Source: Chloroflexota bacterium
Lineage (GTDB): Bacteria > Chloroflexota > Dehalococcoidia > CAUJGQ01
Assembly (NCBI GenBank): GCA_036741355.1
Contig: DAINSK010000008.1
Span: 19,757-83,756 of the forward strand
DNA length: 64,000 nt
Direction: 5' to 3'
The translations under genes were made by a program, and so were the position numbers. Below the pieces are notes generated by a model, which saw only the letters and a list, made by a program, of their open reading frames with translations, had not been told where the DNA came from and did not search any database. Below, piece by piece: positions 16,037-44,252 of this stretch (its first letter is position 1; each line of letters starts with the position of its first letter).

Positions 16037-17656
16037 ATGAGCCGTACGGATATCCTGGAACGTACCGAGGACCGGCGCGCGACCCTCTCGCCGTCTGACG
16101 GTCCACAAGGCCGCGAATCCACGCGAACCAAGCCGAAACTCGAGTTGCTTCAGCCTGATGAGAATGGACCCGGTGCGGCGGACTCCCTGATAGCACCGCT
16201 GCTGTCGAGCCGTGCCAAGGCCGCGGTGCTCGCGCCACTGGACGACATCGCCGAGCCGGACGTCATTCCGGGCAAGCTCGAGGAAGAGGAGGAGGAGGAA
16301 GAGGAAGAGGAAGAGGAAGTGCCCAGGAAGGGTATAGAGGCCGGCCTCCCTCTCGAAGAGCAGGAAGGGATCGACGATCCCGTCCGCATGTACCTGCGCG
16401 AGATTGGCAAGGTGTCGCTGCTTTCTGCCGACGACGAGAAGCGACTCGCCCGGCAGATGGAGGAAGGCAAGCACATCACCCGGCTCGAGCAGAGCTGGCA
16501 GCAGAGTATGGGCCGTCCCGCCCGGACGGCAGACGTGGTCTACATGCTCTTCATGGAGCTTGCCGACCTCGAGCCGATCATGAAGTCGATCATGGAATAC
16601 GCCGGCACGACTGCGAAGGACCTCGCCGGTATTATCGGCGACACGGCGCTGCGCAAGGTCATCGACGGCGAAATGGACCTGGAGGCGGCCGAGAAGGTTC
16701 GCCAGGACCACGGCTACCCGCAGGACGAGCAACTGCTGGCAGAGCACGCGATCGTCAGGCTCTCGATCGTTACCCATATCCTCAACCCAGACCTCGTCCG
16801 CGGGGTTCAGGACGCGGTTGGTCCGAAGGTTTCGCTCTTGCCGCCTCCGAACGACCTGCCGCAGCGGATAGTCGAGCATCCGAAGGCGCTCAAGCCGTTT
16901 GACGAACTGCTGCGCCGCCTGGACGACGAAGGCGCGCGTGCAGAAAAGCGACTAACCGAGGCCAACCTCCGCCTCGTTGTCTCTGTGGCAAAGAAGTACA
17001 TCGGTCGTGGCATGTCGCTGCTCGACCTCATCCAGGAAGGCAATATTGGCCTGATTCGGGCGGTCGAGAAGTTCGACTACCGCAAGGGCTACAAATTCAG
17101 CACGTACGCGACGTGGTGGATCCGACAGGCGATCACGCGCGCGATCGCCGACCAGGCACGGACGATCCGCATCCCCGTGCACATGGTTGAAACGATCAAC
17201 AAGCTGGTTCGTGTCAGCCGCAGGCTTGTGCAGGAGTATGGTCGCGAGCCGACAAGCGAAGAGATCGGACGCGGTATGGAAATCACGCCCGAGAAGGTGC
17301 GCGAAATCATCAAGGTTTCGCAGGAACCGGTGTCCTTGGAGACGCCGATCGGCGAGGAAGAGGACAGCCACCTCGGCGACTTCATCGAAGACCACGGCGC
17401 TCTGGCGCCGGCCGACGCCGCTTCGCACCAACTGCTCAAAGAGCAGGTCGAGGACGTGCTGGCATCGCTAACCGGCCGCGAGCGCCGGGTGCTGCAGCTT
17501 CGATTCGGTCTCGAAGACGGCCGCAGCCGCACCCTCGAAGAGGTCGGACGGGAGTTCGGCGTGACGCGCGAGCGCATTCGCCAGATCGAGGCCAAAGCAC
17601 TCCGCAAACTGCGCCATCCGTCCCGGTCCAAGAAGCTGAAGGATTATTTGGATTGA
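16037..17656 (+). CDS. rpoD: RNA polymerase primary sigma factor (sigma-70/RpoD)
   Basis: Regions 1.2 to 4 are present ([51 protein letters not shown]; region 4 [30 protein letters not shown]). The acidic 1.1-like region has a 20-residue Glu run. Confidence 0.95.
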
Positions 17657-17680
17657 AACCAGATGGGGGTTAGCCAACCA

Positions 17681-17899
17681 ATGCCGCTCTACGAGTATTA
17701 CTGCCCGTCTTGTCAGGCAAAGTTTGAGAAGCTTCGGTCGATGGCGTCCGCTGACGAGTCGGTGCGCTGCAATGCAGGCCACGAAGGGGCACGGCGCCTG
17801 ATCTCGGTCTTTGCCGTCAGCGGCCGCTCCGGAGAGCAGGAGACGCTGCCCGCCGCGGGCGGCTGCTGCGGTGGCGGCGGCTGCTCCTGCGGGCGGTGA
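17681..17899 (+). CDS. FmdB-family zinc-ribbon protein
   Basis: MPLYEYYCPSCQAKFEKL...VRCNAGH is a CxxC...CxxGH ribbon. It has a Gly/Cys-rich tail CCGGGGCSCGR. The start at 17681 follows the family consensus (MPxYEYxC), though the ORF can extend to 17663. Confidence 0.75.
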   Translation: MPLYEYYCPSCQAKFEKLRSMASADESVRCNAGHEGARRLISVFAVSGRSGEQETLPAAGGCCGGGGCSCGR

Positions 17900-17948
17900 A
17901 CCTCACCCCCTTCCCCTCTCCATCCTTGCGGATGGAGAGGGGCGATCC
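17900..17948. repeat. GC-rich palindromic repeat, copy 1 (left terminal inverted repeat of a MITE-like unit)
   Basis: The sequence is cctcacccccttc followed by a perfect 13-bp hairpin cccctctccatcc-ttgc-ggatggagagggg and then cgatcc. It starts 1 nt after the fmdB-like stop. Confidence 0.7.
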
Positions 17949-18000
17949 TGTTGCGCTGGAACGGACTGGTGGGAATGCGTGAAGATCGTTGTAGCCCCAC

Positions 18001-18392
18001 GTGGTGAGGGGAAGGGGGCCTGACGCCCGCAGTTATTTGCGCAGGCAGCAAACGACCGCGGAACAGACTTTCTGGGAAATGGTGCGGGATCGCCGCTTCG
18101 CCGGGTTCAAGTTTCGACGCCAGTATGCAATTGCCGCTTCATCACGGACTTCTACTGTGCAGAGTTGAAACTTGCCGTCGAGTTAGACGGCGAGGTCCAT
18201 AAGTCGCTCGCAGAACGCGACCGTGCCCGCAATGCCCTAATTTCCGATCACGCGAACCGGGTAGTACGCATTACCAACGACGAACTACTCGCAGATCCAC
18301 CAGCGGTCCTCGCAAAGCTACTCGCACTGTCAGGGCAACCAAGGATCGCCCCCTCTCCATCGCTTGGCGATGGAGAGGGGGATGGGGGGTGA
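18001..18392 (+). pseudogene. DUF559 (Vsr-like endonuclease fold) gene disrupted by a -1 frameshift
   Basis: Frame 1 reads ...RRQQTTAEQTFWEMVRDRRFAGFKFRRQYAIA and then hits a stop. Frame 3 continues ITDFYCAELKLAVELDGEVHKSLAERDRARNALISDHANRVVRITNDELL. Joined, these are the DUF559 consensus (FKFRRQ...PIG.YIVDFYC...ELDG), so a 1-nt deletion near 18150 is implied. Confidence 0.65.
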
Positions 18393-18394
18393 GG
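18343..18394. repeat. GC-rich palindromic repeat, copy 2 (inverted orientation relative to copy 1; right terminal inverted repeat)
   Basis: The sequence is ggatcg followed by a perfect 15-bp hairpin ccccctctccatcgc-ttg-gcgatggagaggggg and then gatggggggtgagg. Its reverse complement aligns with copy 1 along its entire length. Confidence 0.7.
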
Positions 18395-19207
18395 TTATCT
18401 TCCGCTGCTAACGAGCGGTAGATCTGGCGTGTGGTCGATTTCGGCTTCTGGCTTCTCTGCGGGCGGGACGGCCGCAATGGCCGGATGCGCATGGCGACGC
18501 AGGAAGACGAACGATGCGGCGCCGATGATCAGCGATTCCAGCACCGTCATTCCCGCGATCAGCAGCGTCGCGTCCTGCCAAAAGCCCTCGGGGAACATTT
18601 GCACAAGGTGATCCCGCGCCGGATCCAGTTGCCAGTAGTTGTTTCCGAAGCTCAGCTCGTGAAAGCGCAGAAAGAGTGAATCGAAGCTGCCGGTGGCTGC
18701 CAGCACGCCAAATGCCACGATGAGAACGACCGTCACCAGGCAGGTCTGCAACGCGCGCCTTGCGAGCGCCTCGAAGCCCTCTTCCTGCCCCCATACGAAG
18801 ACGCCGACGACGTAGGCGGCGACCAGGAAAAGGGCGATCGCCTCAACCGCGTACACGGCTCGCACGAGGCTCTTCACATCGTGCATGTGGAGAACCTCTT
18901 TCGAATTGAACAGCGGCACCACGTTCCCCGATTGGTCGTGGACCTTGGTGCGCAGGTAGTCGTCCGAGTTGAGGAAATAGGCGCGGATGTCCCGCGTTGC
19001 GTCGATCAGGTCCGACCGCGAGATGTGCGCGACCGAAGGGACATCGTAATGGTCGATGCTATACTGGTAGACACGTTGTTCGCTGAAAGCGAAACGAACG
19101 TTCGTGGTGAGGAGCGCCAACGGCAGCGCCACGAAGAACAAGGCGCGGACGTTCCAGCGCAGTAGACGCCCGGAATTCACTGCCCTCAGCACCGACCCTC
19201 TCTTCAC
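18395..19207 (-). CDS. integral membrane protein (N-terminal TM anchor, an extracytoplasmic domain, three C-terminal TM helices); function unknown
   Basis: Hydrophobic segments are ALFFVALPLALLTT, AIALFLVAAYVVGVFVW, LVTVVLIVAFGVLAA and ATLLIAGMTVLESLIIGAASFVFL. The ORF extends to 19294 but would then overlap the divergent 19239 gene. A GTG at 19207 is proposed as the start. Confidence 0.5.
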   Translation of the reverse strand: MKRGSVLRAVNSGRLLRWNVRALFFVALPLALLTTNVRFAFSEQRVYQYSIDHYDVPSVAHISRSDLIDATRDIRAYFLNSDDYLRTKVHDQSGNVVPLFNSKEVLHMHDVKSLVRAVYAVEAIALFLVAAYVVGVFVWGQEEGFEALARRALQTCLVTVVLIVAFGVLAATGSFDSLFLRFHELSFGNNYWQLDPARDHLVQMFPEGFWQDATLLIAGMTVLESLIIGAASFVFLRRHAHPAIAAVPPAEKPEAEIDHTPDLPLVSSGR

Positions 19208-19238
19208 CGCCGTTATCCTATCACAGGGGTGAACGCAC

Positions 19239-20702
19239 ATGCCCATCACCGTGATCGGGCTCGGCCCCGGCGATCCCGGCCTCCTGACCCTCAATGCTCA
19301 ACGCGCGCTCGCGTCCGCGGAAACTGTGTGGCTGCGTACCGCTCGCCACCCGGGCGTCGATTCGCTACCCATCGGGCCCCGCTACGAGAACTTTGATGGG
19401 CTTTACGATTCGCTCGACAGCTTCGAATCCGTATACGCGGCCATCGTTCAGAACCTGCTTAGTGCAGCCGCAGACGGCGACGTCGTATACGCGGTTCCTG
19501 GTGATCCGCTCGTAGCAGAAGCGACCGTCCGCGGGCTGTTAGACGCGGCGCGGTCCGGCGGACCAGAGGTGCGGCTCATCCCCGGAGTAAGCTTTGTCGA
19601 GGCAGTGCTGCACATGCTCGCACTCGATCCTTTGGAGCACGGGCTCCAGATCGTCGACGCACTGGAGCCGTTCGCGGACCCAACCCGGCCGGCCCTGTTC
19701 GCCCAGGTACACGGCCGGCGCGTCGCCTCGCACCTCAAGATTGCGCTCTTAGATCGCTATCCGCCGGCGCATCGCGTCAAACTGGTGAGCGCCGCGGGCG
19801 TGTCCGGCGAAGAACGCGCGGACGAACTAGAGCTTGCAGAACTGGACCGCAACGAACTGTCCGGTCACCTATCCACGCTGTACGTGCCCGCGCTGCCACT
19901 CGAAGAGAACCGCCGCACTTTTGGCGGCGTGCAAGCGATCGTTCACCGCCTCTACGCCCCCGGCGGCTGTCCGTGGGATCGAGAACAGACCCACGAGACG
20001 CTGAAGCCGAACTTGCTCGAGGAGGCCTATGAGGCGCTGCAGGCGCTGGACGAAAACGACCCGCACGCCTTGAGCGAGGAGCTGGGAGACCTGCTGCTGC
20101 AGATCGCGCTCCACACGGAGATTGCCGAAGAGGCAGGCGAGTTCTCGTACGGGGACGTTTTCGAGTCCATTGCCGGCAAGCTGATACGCCGCCACCCGCA
20201 CGTCTTCGGCGACGTGAAAGCCGACAATGCCGAAGCCGTGATCGCCAACTGGCAAAGGACGAAAGAGGCCGAGAAGGCGGAGCGTGCGGCGGCCATCGGC
20301 GGCGACACCGAGCCCGAATCACTGCTGGCGGGAGTGCCGAGGGCGATGCCGTCGTTGGCCTACGCCCAGGCCGTCCAGGGCCGAGCGGCCGCGGTCGGTT
20401 TCGATTGGCCGAAGGTAGAAGACGTGCTCGACAAACTCAGCGAAGAGGTCGCGGAGCTACGCCGAGCGGCAAACCACACCGAACGGCTCGACGAGTTCGG
20501 CGACGTGGTCTTCGTTCTGGCCAACCTGGCCCGCTGGCTGAAGATCGACGCCGAGGAAGCCGGAAGGATGGCTGGGGCGAAGTTCTACCGGCGCTTCTCA
20601 GCAGTTGAACACCTGGCGCGCGCCGAGGGAAAGCGGCTCTCGGAGATGACCCTTACTGAGGTGGACGCTCTGTGGGACCAGGTCAAACAAGCCGAGGCGT
20701 GA
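19239..20702 (+). CDS. mazG: MazG-family NTP pyrophosphohydrolase fused to an N-terminal tetrapyrrole-methylase-like domain (YabN-like)
   Basis: The N-terminus ITVIGLGPGDPGLLT is a TP-methylase fold. The C-terminus HRLYAPGGCPWDREQTHETLKPNLLEEAYE...LGDLLLQIALH is MazG, and a second MazG repeat follows. Confidence 0.85.
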   Translation: MPITVIGLGPGDPGLLTLNAQRALASAETVWLRTARHPGVDSLPIGPRYENFDGLYDSLDSFESVYAAIVQNLLSAAADGDVVYAVPGDPLVAEATVRGLLDAARSGGPEVRLIPGVSFVEAVLHMLALDPLEHGLQIVDALEPFADPTRPALFAQVHGRRVASHLKIALLDRYPPAHRVKLVSAAGVSGEERADELELAELDRNELSGHLSTLYVPALPLEENRRTFGGVQAIVHRLYAPGGCPWDREQTHETLKPNLLEEAYEALQALDENDPHALSEELGDLLLQIALHTEIAEEAGEFSYGDVFESIAGKLIRRHPHVFGDVKADNAEAVIANWQRTKEAEKAERAAAIGGDTEPESLLAGVPRAMPSLAYAQAVQGRAAAVGFDWPKVEDVLDKLSEEVAELRRAANHTERLDEFGDVVFVLANLARWLKIDAEEAGRMAGAKFYRRFSAVEHLARAEGKRLSEMTLTEVDALWDQVKQAEA

Positions 20703-25514: not shown

Positions 25515-25551
25515 CCTAACCCCCGGCCCCTTCCCTAAAGGAGGGAAGGGG
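25515..25551. repeat. GC-rich palindromic repeat, copy 3 (variant hairpin)
   Basis: The sequence is cctaacccccgg followed by the hairpin ccccttccct-aaagg-agggaagggg. Its flank is related to copies 1 and 6. Confidence 0.55.
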
Positions 25552-28070: not shown

Positions 28071-28146
28071 GCCAAGGTAGCTCAGTCGGTAGAGCATGCG
28101 ACTGAAAATCGCAGTGTCGGCAGTTCGATTCTGCCCCTTGGCACCA
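28071..28146 (+). tRNA. tRNA-Phe (anticodon GAA)
   Basis: A cloverleaf with acceptor GCCAAGG/CCTTGGC, D-arm GCTC-AGTCGGTA-GAGC, anticodon arm TGCGA-CTGAAAA-TCGCA, T-arm GGCAG-TTCGATT-CTGCC and an encoded CCA. Confidence 0.9.
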
Positions 28147-28404: not shown

Positions 28405-28468
28405 GTGAGGGAGGCGCGGCCCTCACCCCTCTTATCCCCTCTCCCAATACTGGGCGAGGGGACGATCC
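28405..28468. repeat. GC-rich palindromic repeat, copy 4
   Basis: A gtgaggg...ccctcac mini-hairpin, then the hairpin cccctctccca-atac-tgggcgagggg (one G:T position), then acgatcc. Confidence 0.6.
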
Positions 28469-28570
28469 AGCACGGGGACGACGCACCCCGTGGAACGGCT
28501 CGAACGGCTGTCGAGCGCCTAACCGCGGCTGTCCGGAATGCCAATAGCGCCCGGAGTCGGCAACCAGAGA

Positions 28571-28620
28571 CCGCCTCCCTCGCCCAGGATTGGGAGAGGG
28601 AGGACGGGAGCGTGAGGGCC
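28571..28620. repeat. GC-rich palindromic repeat, copy 5 (inverted orientation relative to copy 4)
   Basis: The hairpin cctccctcgccca-ggat-tgggagagggagg followed by ...cgtgagggcc. Its reverse complement matches copy 4, including the ggccctcac flank. Confidence 0.6.
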
Positions 28621-28652: not shown

Positions 28653-29027
28653 GTGGGTAAAGGAACTAGGGGACGCGGCGTGGTATCGAGCGGGGTAAAA
28701 GTAGTCGTAGAGCCGTCGGAGGGGCCGCTGGCGGAAGCGGTGCGCCGGCTGGTCGATCTGTTCCGGCCGGAGCGGATCTACCTGTTCGGCTCGCAGGCGC
28801 GCGGCGACGCGACCGAAGACAGCGACTACGATCTGATGGTCGTCGTACCCTCTGATGACGAGCCACGCTACCGCCGGGCCCAACGCGCGTACGGCGTTCT
28901 CTACGAAGTCGATCTGCCGGTCGACGTCCTGGTGCTCACGCACGACGAATTCGAACGACAAGCGCCGGTCGTCGCCTCACTCCCCGCAACGGTGCTGCGG
29001 GAGGGGCGGCTACTGTATGCGGACTGA
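28653..29027 (+). CDS. nucleotidyltransferase-domain protein (MNT-type, antitoxin-like)
   Basis: LFGSQARGDATEDSDYDLMVVV is the GS-x9-13-DxD polymerase-beta NTase motif. The 5' end is a GTG at 28653; a GTG at 28680 is an alternative. Confidence 0.7.
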   Translation: MGKGTRGRGVVSSGVKVVVEPSEGPLAEAVRRLVDLFRPERIYLFGSQARGDATEDSDYDLMVVVPSDDEPRYRRAQRAYGVLYEVDLPVDVLVLTHDEFERQAPVVASLPATVLREGRLLYAD

Positions 29028-44177: not shown

Positions 44178-44252
44178 GCCCCCTATCTCCCCAGCCCTCT
44201 TTCCCCCAATACTAGGGGCAAGAGGGGCGGAAGGGCACGGGGGTTAGGGGGC
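44178..44252. repeat. GC-rich palindromic repeat, copy 6 (composite)
   Basis: ccctatctccccagccctctttccccc-aatact-aggggcaagagggg, plus an inverted partial copy of the copy-3 flank (cggaagggcacgggggttagggggcc). Confidence 0.55.

Follow-up and report, generated by a model that had tools for sequence, protein, structure and literature searches.

The intrastrand triplex motif (TM), described as TMECO in Escherichia coli by Holder et al. (2015) and under the older names BoxC and PIT element by Bachellier et al. in the 1990s and Hoyne et al. (2000), is a pyrimidine/purine hairpin followed by a G-rich mirror image of its purine arm, with a T opposite one A (PMC4666352). The E. coli form, CCCTCTCCC-loop-GGGAGAGGG-TTA/CCG-GGGTGAGGG, has 23 copies in strain K-12, and TMs occur in over 260 genomes (PMC4666352). 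Triplex formation was observed in vitro by circular dichroism and nuclear magnetic resonance for the E. coli sequence only, TMs stall DNA polymerase in vitro, and rearrangement is raised at E. coli TM loci; no functional class was found among the genes neighboring TMs and no mobility-related activity beside them, and PIT/BoxC elements had neither terminator nor promoter activity in E. coli (PMC4666352). Known since the 1990s from hundreds of genomes and unusually conserved in sequence, these repeats have had no assigned function, origin or spreading mechanism. Here we describe a 64,000-nucleotide stretch of the genome of a Chloroflexota bacterium (contig DAINSK010000008.1; hereafter, the window) in which two inverted TMs enclose a frameshifted nuclease gene of the DUF559 family.

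DUF559, which includes E. coli YcjD, is a very large family with a solved structure (PDB 3HRL) and no known role. One survey grouped it with VSR and DUF2726 (1cw0, 3hrl, 3r3p), with functions that include a group I intron homing endonuclease (PMC3424549), and the Vsr-like nucleases include the EDxHD homing endonuclease I-Bth0305I (PMC3239194). The repeat and the gene family are each known; our literature search, which covered few subscription-journal papers, found no paper that links TM or BoxC to DUF559. The preliminary description of this locus, made from the sequence alone, had remarked that DUF559 genes are not usually described as cargo of small mobile or homing elements, although Vsr-like relatives are known homing endonucleases (PMC3239194, PMC3424549). 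We report that this unit was inserted as a single block with a TM at either end, exactly filling the gap from stop codon to stop codon of a convergent pair of housekeeping genes, and that DUF559 genes and TMs are associated strongly, in many phyla and in a specific architecture. On balance, we consider it probable that the unit at 17900-18395 is a copy of a compact selfish cassette in which a YcjD-type DUF559 nuclease is carried between inverted TM ends, in a manner resembling repetitive extragenic palindromic (REP) sequences and their RAYT transposases.

A TM-bounded unit between two convergent genes

The 495-bp unit occupies the whole intergenic space between an FmdB-type gene and a convergent Lit-family gene, from stop codon to stop codon (Table 1). 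The FmdB stop TGA (17897-17899) abuts the left repeat, and the Lit stop (TAA, minus strand, 18395-18397) shares the last base of the right repeat. The left repeat (17900-17948) reads A-CCTCACCCCC-TT-CCCCTCTCCATCC-TTGC-GGATGGAGAGGGG-CGATCC, with CCTCACCCCC at 17901-17910, a perfect 13-bp hairpin at 17913-17925/17930-17942 closed by a TTGC loop, and an inner CGATCC at 17943-17948. The right repeat (18343-18395) reads GGATCG-CCCCCTCTCCATCGC-TTG-GCGATGGAGAGGGGG-AT-GGGGGGTGAGG-T, with GGATCG at 18343-18348, a perfect 15-bp hairpin at 18349-18363/18367-18381 around a TTG loop, and the third strand GGGGGGTGAGG at 18384-18394. The two repeats are reverse complements of each other, with 47 identical positions over 52-55 nt and small insertions or deletions, and the inverted-repeat score of the pair, 29.5, is about twice the highest value, 15.5, among 400 randomly chosen positions of the window. 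When modeled as single strands of DNA, the two hairpins have folding energies of -18.8 and -19.7 kcal/mol (z = -5.7 and -4.9 versus shuffled sequence) in ViennaRNA, which models hairpins only and no triplex. Both stems have the form CCCCTCTCCATC(C/GC)...GGAGAGGGG, and the 12-mer CCCCTCTCCATC is confined within the window to the four hairpin arms (0.37 expected). The DUF559 gene starts 52 bp after the left repeat, and its stop TGA (18390-18392) falls within the GGGGTGAGG segment of the right repeat. The preliminary description had recognized two inverted hairpin repeats of about 50 nt, their perfect stems of 13-15 bp, the frameshifted DUF559 gene between them, the position directly after the fmdB-like stop and the overlap of the last codons of the gene with the right repeat, and all of these were confirmed.

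Judged by its sequence, the repeat of about 50 bp named in the preliminary description is a BoxC/PIT/TM element and not a new one. It follows the TM plan of a hairpin, CCCCTCTCC...GGAGAGGGG, and then the mirror strand, GGGGTGAGG. The cctcaccccc flank noted there, CCTCACCCC, is no arbitrary flank but supplies the third strand that mirrors the hairpin, and the right copy, GGAGAGGGG(G)-AT-GG-GGGGTGAGG, obeys the mirror rule of TMECO, GGGAGAGGG-TTA-GGGTGAGGG. A TM was defined here as a hairpin with arms of at least 8-9 bp and a short loop, followed 2-5 nt past the purine arm by a third segment that is its mirror image (G opposite G, A or T opposite A); both repeats of the unit have this hairpin and third strand and are predicted to have the potential for a class II purine-motif triplex. 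The architecture is that of BoxC and the sequence nearly so (CCCTCTCC-loop-GGAGAGGG, a short spacer and the mirror GGGTGAGG, with T opposite A), and BoxC copies are likewise intergenic, single or in inverted doublets, and found at rearranged loci. Unlike BoxC, the two copies of the unit stand on either side of a gene and close off an inserted block, and their third strands face outward, whereas those of E. coli BoxC doublets face inward.

Evidence for the insertion came from 57 loci collected in a metagenome scan with the window Lit protein. Dozens of these keep the order DnaG-RpoD-FmdB followed by convergent Lit-MazG, neither a TM hairpin nor a DUF559 gene separates FmdB from Lit in any of the 57, and no canonical TM was found in 231 kb of the relatives' loci. 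In L207, the closest relative with both genes (RpoD 90% and Lit 65% identity), the FmdB and Lit stops overlap, and in L206 they are separated by a spacer of about 90 bp that holds no TM. The loci with orthologous flanks are empty, and none carries the same arrangement with an intact gene. The nearest DUF559 homologues, P0001 and P0002 (69-73% amino acid identity), belong to contigs L121 and L122; both inverted repeats stand there around an intact gene, and the unit is followed by tRNA-Ser(GCT) and another open reading frame (ORF) in place of Lit. The repeat-encoded C-terminal tail of P0001 and P0002, PRIAPSPSPSDGEGDGG, is near-identical to the window tail, PRIAPSPSLGDGEGDGG. In a three-way alignment of the window, L121 and L122, similarity runs from (G)AACCTCACC to GGTGAGGT, exactly from one outer repeat end to the other, and the flanks are unrelated; for L146 and L181, the common sequence is limited to a 581-bp unit. 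The proposal that repeats and gene form one inserted unit is borne out by the empty loci and by the recurrence of the unit in another context.

We considered whether DUF559 could be a free-standing homing gene that resides in pre-existing TM doublets and spreads only by cutting empty ones and being copied into them through recombination between the TMs, with the TMs themselves dispersed by another route. The fold includes EDxHD homing endonucleases, gene-less TM doublets exist both in E. coli (five BoxC pairs; PMC4666352) and in the window (28420-28618), and L128, L133 and L144 have compound doublet arms. However, the junction is free of TMs in the 57 relatives and hence gives no sign of a pre-existing doublet, and the inward third strands of the E. 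coli BoxC doublets are opposite to those of most DUF559 units. We regard this explanation as distinctly unlikely.

Two further features of the insertion locus and its counterparts were noted. The FmdB/Lit junction holds a different insert of about 1.2 kb in L204/L205 (4940-6150) and L255 (4741-6048), which in L204 contains a 315-amino-acid (aa) ORF resembling an ion-channel (membrane) protein; insertions seem to recur at this convergent junction. Between copies that are otherwise conserved, the right-hand hairpin has a flipped loop (TTG at window 18364-18366; CAA at L121 990-992 and L122 412-414), which looks like the flip-flop signature of hairpin inversion or template switching.

Association of DUF559 genes with TMs across bacteria

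To locate DUF559 genes independently of the repeat, the repeat-encoded tails of homologues were trimmed and only the domain core was used, which avoids circularity. The scan pattern [FYC][IV]xDFYCAE was derived from an 18-sequence alignment, one genome was taken per species, and the best 80 loci were analyzed. They come from Chloroflexota, Planctomycetota, Gemmatimonadota, Bacteroidota, Fibrobacterota, Thermoanaerobaculia (Acidobacteriota), Pseudomonadota, Ignavibacteriota, Verrucomicrobiota, Turneriella (Spirochaetota), Thermotogae and candidate phyla radiation (CPR) lineages. Of 121 strict TM hairpins (CCCTCTCC, 2-25 nt, GGAGAGGG) in these loci, 99 lie within 400 bp of a DUF559 core, a zone that makes up 8% of the sequence; the density is 1.55 per kb near the core versus 0.031 farther away, a 50-fold difference (binomial P = 3e-86). 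At least one near strict TM was present in 51 of the 80 loci, and 32 had TMs on both sides. The commonest arrangement is that of the window, with CCTCACC outside the upstream copy and GGTGAGG outside the downstream copy. A relaxed motif (1 mismatch per arm) was found in 71 of 80 loci and blurred the orientation (GGGAGAG being close to GGGTGAG), so the strict counts are reported instead.

We also compared the best inverted repeat between the 300 bp upstream and the 300 bp downstream of each gene with control positions, a measure that uses no motif. Flanking inverted repeats exceeded the 95th percentile of the controls in 60 of 72 testable loci, and 20 of 28 loci without the strict motif still had flanking inverted repeats, which are TM variants. 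C-terminal tails of the PSPPTPLPxGERG type, encoded by the repeat, were present in at least 35 of 118 homologues, and many annotated homologues have tails of this kind or PHPSPLPSGERG, which are translated TM. A complete TM doublet of about 105 bp stands on each side of the gene in L128 and L133 (5820-5922, 6310-6447) and in L144 (5818-6290), which resembles the REPIN-flanked RAYT genes.

The association extends to cultured organisms. In the ycjD region of E. coli K-12 (L203, 1351040-1351827), a degenerate hairpin covers the ycjD stop codon and BoxC/TMECO #9 follows 168 bp downstream of the gene; the stretch between the two contains a partly duplicated ycjD 3' end. TM hairpins stand on both sides of the gene in Synechocystis sp. 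B12, Azospirillum lipoferum and Deinococcus aetherius, and the gene for the 3HRL homologue in Neisseria gonorrhoeae (L266) has variant TM flanks on both sides. In L266 (1361-1393 and 1974-2669), the N. gonorrhoeae gene also lies between direct copies of a larger repeat that contains the variant TM CTCTCTCCC..GGGAGAGAG-CTA-GAGAGAGGG and of which further copies follow downstream, spaced about 281 bp apart. In E. coli O157:H7 FRIK2533 (L261), a resistance-nodulation-division (RND) efflux locus (eef-like) adjoins fabI where the ycjD region is missing.

A survey of programmed inversion that spanned the bacterial domain reported a 14-fold enrichment of coding sequences (CDSs) annotated "DUF559" and a 9.6-fold enrichment of those annotated "endonuclease domain-containing protein" among predicted inversion targets; it counted CDSs overlapped by inversion-type repeat pairs and did not identify the repeat itself (PMC9881135). 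On this evidence, the inverted repeats of the window might permit programmed inversion of the gene segment and act as a switch. No recombinase gene lies nearby, however, inversion between the hairpin arms would by symmetry leave the cassette the same relative to its own ends, and a switch would not account for presence/absence and differing genomic contexts. The survey signal itself arises because TM inverted repeats overlap the ends of the CDSs, and the association thus accounts for the listing of DUF559 genes as "programmed inversion targets," just as it explains the odd PSPPTPLPxGERG tails, a translated repeat, on thousands of annotated DUF559 proteins. An invertible switch is highly improbable.

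Covariation of stem and third strand

With a generic search for any pyrimidine/purine hairpin, 131 were found near DUF559 cores (1.57 versus 0.078 per kb), and in 117 of these at least 7 of the 8 third-strand positions agreed with the mirror of the purine arm. Among 96 unique hairpins, 88 had a Watson-Crick pair (variously CG, AT and GC) as the first interior pair of the stem, and stems extended on average 2.0 bp beyond the fixed outer stem versus 0.40 bp for shuffled interiors. Deviations in the arm are tracked by the third strand: GGGAGGGG occurs with GGGGTGGG, GGAGAAGG with GGATGAGG and, in Neisseria, GGGAGAGAG with GAGAGAGGG. Across 46 noncanonical arms, the third strand belonging to the arm matched at 7.76 of 8 positions, compared to 6.47 for permuted pairings (maximum, 6.83 in 1000 permutations). 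Given this covariation of stem and third strand, the mirror relation is selected rather than merely frozen in sequence, which would fit either a repeat that functions when folded into a hairpin/triplex or one that is recognized through two half-sites in mirror relation.

The covarying third strand and the conservation of the sequence across phyla are not properties of terminators. The hairpins do stand at the ends of convergent genes, as ordinary terminators or insulators around an ordinary gene might, yet a promoter/terminator consensus scan found none and there is no T-tract after either hairpin, so they are not classical terminators, in keeping with the inactivity of PIT/BoxC as terminator or promoter in E. 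coli (PMC4666352). We consider this explanation very unlikely.

The DUF559 gene and its family

The Pfam DUF559 profile matches the gene in two frames, with 18001-18135 corresponding to profile positions 9-41 (E = 8.6e-10) and 18132-18392 to positions 43-105 (E = 2e-13). Alignment with the intact genes of L121 and L122 places a 1-nt deletion at 18136/18137, where the window has ATTGCC-G-CTTC and the intact genes have ATCGCCGG(A/T)TTC; the open reading frame of the window gene is not intact. With the frame repaired, the protein scores E = 1e-18 against the E. coli YcjD model, NCBIfam PRK09767 (a match below the equivalog cutoff), and E = 6.5e-15 against PDB 3HRL from N. gonorrhoeae over residues 18-110. 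The family-invariant residues D39, E50, D52, H56, R66 and N82 (conserved pattern D...E-x-D-G..H...N) are all kept. The dN/dS ratio (nonsynonymous to synonymous substitution rates) of the window copy to the intact orthologues is 0.22-0.29, and that between the two intact orthologues is 0.23. These ratios place the family under purifying selection and point to a frameshift that arose recently or else reflects a sequencing error; from these sequence data, the gene is taken to be functional in the family. A sequencing error in an otherwise intact gene would agree with a dN/dS the same as that of intact orthologues, as would a very recent mutation, but the deletion lies outside any homopolymer run, and we hold an error to be very improbable.

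The DUF559/YcjD family comprises 20,092 cluster representatives (50% identity clusters, E <= 1e-3). Many DUF559 matches (P0121-P0270) sit inside called proteins of 300-1200 aa, and many of the matched stretches extend into the repeat-encoded tail of the query; these long proteins look like gene-calling read-through across TMs or true fusions. A search with PADLOC gave marginal matches only (HEase, E = 0.0076), and membership of the unit in a defense system was rejected on that basis.

A candidate selfish cassette

The selfish-cassette reading can be stated as a mechanism that parallels the relation of RAYT transposases to REP/REPIN repeats. On this reading, the DUF559 protein would recognize and nick the TM, either as a folded hairpin/triplex or as a conserved sequence. 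The cut TM would then allow the cassette to be copied to new sites by break repair or by replication-fork template switching, and gene-less TM singlets and doublets would be copied likewise, in trans. The copy in the window would have been inactivated recently by the 1-nt deletion and would now be decaying, and the gene-less doublet at 28420-28618 would represent a later stage of decay. The action of the DUF559 nuclease on TMs is inferred. The preliminary description had called the unit probably non-autonomous; given that it encodes a nuclease, it would instead be the autonomous form, here inactivated, and the doublet would be the form that resembles a miniature inverted-repeat transposable element (MITE). 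More tentatively, we suggest that YcjD-type DUF559 proteins could be the missing dedicated nucleases of BoxC/PIT/TM elements, in a REP-RAYT-like system present in many phyla. As Vsr-fold nickases, they would read a DNA hairpin with its triplex-capable third strand, mobilize the cassette and, in trans, gene-less TM singlets and doublets, and thereby cause the instability reported at TM sites.

Several observations weigh against a selfish cassette. The orientation of the TMs relative to the DUF559 gene varies among the 80 loci, the strict motif is missing in 29 of them, and 12 of the 72 testable loci have no flanking inverted repeat. At least 120 TM-bearing stretches, many of them multi-copy, were found on viral contigs with a generic pattern, and DUF559 was encoded in 1 of 120 such loci; because of this, most TM copies are considered to be solo and far from DUF559, and the idea that every TM adjoins a DUF559 gene was rejected. 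Plasmids and phages were rejected as vehicles, given that this DUF559 clade is scarce in both, with 44 of 72,556 records for plasmids and 2 of 50,697 for phages. About 38% of complete E. coli genomes are without the ycjD region, and one of these, O157:H7 FRIK2533, has three further query matches that are apparently BoxC copies. No target-site duplication is visible at TGA|A...T|TA, in L121 or in comparison with the empty sites of L206 and L207, relatives that are too divergent for a base-level alignment of empty and filled sites, and no defined cleavage site can be seen at the unit. Protein similarity follows TM subtype by a small margin (50.7% versus 49.1% identity, permutation p = 0.0005) in a comparison confounded by phylogeny; with so tiny an effect, co-evolution of protein and TM subtype was set aside as support. 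Furthermore, we know of no strand-transfer activity in a lone PD-(D/E)XK nuclease of about 110 aa, and integration would therefore have to rely on host repair.

In a rival explanation, the TMs would be independent, structure-forming and recombination-prone repeats and DUF559 a structure-specific repair nuclease of the host that removes or processes TM hairpins and triplexes at stalled forks. The gene would then be found among TMs through functional coupling, for example by autoregulation or co-transfer, and not through mobilization. TMs form stable triplexes, block polymerase in vitro and mark unstable E. coli loci (PMC4666352), and the fold's prototype, Vsr, acts as a nickase in repair (PMC3239194). 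The purifying selection on the family is consistent with such a role, as are the vast excess of TMs over DUF559 genes and the apparent persistence of TMs in at least one ycjD-less E. coli strain. A host function would, however, account neither for the joint arrival of gene and TMs in a single block that breaks off at the TM tips, nor for the decay of the gene here (the frameshift and the gene-less doublet), nor for the fact that 38% of E. coli genomes do without ycjD. We judge this explanation to be unlikely.

Comparison with known mobile elements

REP/REPIN-RAYT systems are similar to the DUF559 unit in having dispersed, multi-copy short palindromes, one or a few small repeat-flanked nuclease genes per genome, no target-site duplication, hairpins kept by compensatory change, and doublets that are the likely replicative or relic unit. 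Present here is a nuclease gene set between inverted copies of a repeat, of which further copies are dispersed without the gene. Missing is the HUH Y1 transposase, DUF559 being the sole gene in the unit; the enzyme is a Vsr-fold PD-(D/E)XK nuclease rather than the transposase of RAYT. TMs differ further in carrying a triplex-capable third mirror strand, which REP sequences do not, and in being conserved in sequence across phyla, whereas REP sequences are lineage-specific. The likeness to REP/REPIN-RAYT is an analogy and not membership.

With the EDxHD/Vsr nucleases (I-Bth0305I, PDB 3R3P), the protein shares the Vsr-like PD-(D/E)XK grouping; it retains conserved acidic and His residues that may be equivalent to their active site, and selfish behavior is documented for intron- and intein-borne EDxHD members. 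The DUF559 unit differs in consisting of a catalytic domain of about 110 aa only, with no NUMOD or helix-turn-helix (HTH) extension, and in being intergenic and TM-flanked, outside any intron or intein. Nor does a Dcm-type methyltransferase stand beside the gene, as would be expected from a comparison with Vsr; its neighbors are FmdB and Lit.

MITEs and IS200/IS605 elements are likewise small, have inverted or hairpin ends, insert between genes and give rise to gene-less derivatives. IS200/IS605 elements also lack a target-site duplication, whereas MITEs have one. There is no DDE or HUH transposase in the DUF559 unit, and its ends are conserved across phyla rather than element-specific. The MITE-like character proposed in the preliminary description stands for the terminal inverted repeats and falls for the missing duplication and the encoded nuclease; the doublet at 28420-28618 shares with MITEs only the lack of coding capacity.

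The window locus itself is a decayed copy, and its value lies in exposing a general association that gives the repeat and the gene family each a testable partner. The association suggests a second, enzymatically different system of the REP/RAYT type, and it makes DUF559 a candidate for a natural protein that reads a triplex-capable DNA structure. The presence of ycjD in E. coli and of NGO0050 in N. gonorrhoeae makes the hypothesis testable in model organisms.

Further TM copies in the window

The repeat is not confined to the unit, given that other copies occur in the window (Table 1) and in many phyla.

Table 1. Features of the unit, its flanking genes and the other TM copies in the window
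Feature	Coordinates	Strand	Remarks
Whole unit	17900..18395	+	495 bp: left TM, DUF559 pseudogene, right TM
Left TM/BoxC-type repeat	17899..17948 (start at 17899/17900)	+	Third strand outward-facing
YcjD-type DUF559 (Vsr-fold PD-(D/E)XK) nuclease pseudogene	18001..18392	+	GTG start; PF04480 in two frames
Right TM/BoxC-type repeat	18343..18395	-	Inverted relative to left copy
FmdB-type zinc-ribbon gene (left host flank)	17663..17899	+	Pfam PF09723; orthologues in L204-L260
Lit-family gene (right host flank)	18395..19294	-	Pfam PF07314; orthologues in L204-L260
Partial G-rich piece, TGGTGAGGGGAAGGGGG	18002..18018	+	94% complementary to 17906-17922
Gene-less doublet of degenerate TMs	28420..28618	+	Outward third strands, as in the DUF559 unit
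Solo intergenic TM variant	25515..25551	+	CCTAACCCCC-GG-CCCCTTCCC-TAAAGGA-GGGAAGGGG
Solo intergenic degenerate TM variant	44195..44251	-	CCCTCTTTCCCC..GGGGCAAGAGGG, then GGGGGTTAGGGGG

The doublet lies between tRNA-Phe (28071-28146) and an MNT-like nucleotidyltransferase ORF (28653-29027). Its left half reads CCCTCACCCC-TCTTAT-CCCCTCTCCC..GGGCGAGGGG-ACGATCC and its right half GGCAACCAGAGACCGCC-T-CCCTCGCCC..GGGAGAGGG-AGGAC-GGGAGCGTGAGGG. The inner flank of the right half, GGCAACCAGAGACCGCC, matches the last DUF559 codons at 14 of 17 positions, a value reached by 3 of 500 shuffles, and the similarity of the doublet interior to the DUF559 coding region was not significant (41 of 500 shuffles reached the score). 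The doublet is probably a deleted derivative or a MITE-like relative of the unit.

A search of Rfam with 17600-18700 in E-value mode returned chance-level matches only (E >= 1), and Rfam has no model for the TM element. The G-rich piece at the start of the DUF559 ORF overlaps the first codons, is not conserved in L121 or L122 and has no significant fold; its complementarity to the left repeat is possibly due to chance. Among the TM-bearing viral contigs, L044 (1730-2830) and L067 (2300-3280) hold tandem units of about 72 bp, each consisting of a complete TM and a conserved GCCTCACCGACGACGAG; the spacing of these arrays is CRISPR-like, but the "spacers" are identical. The solo variants in the window differ in subtype from the copies that flank DUF559, with third strands CCTAACCCCC/GGGGGTTAGG and stems CCCCTTCCC and CCCTCTTTCCCC.

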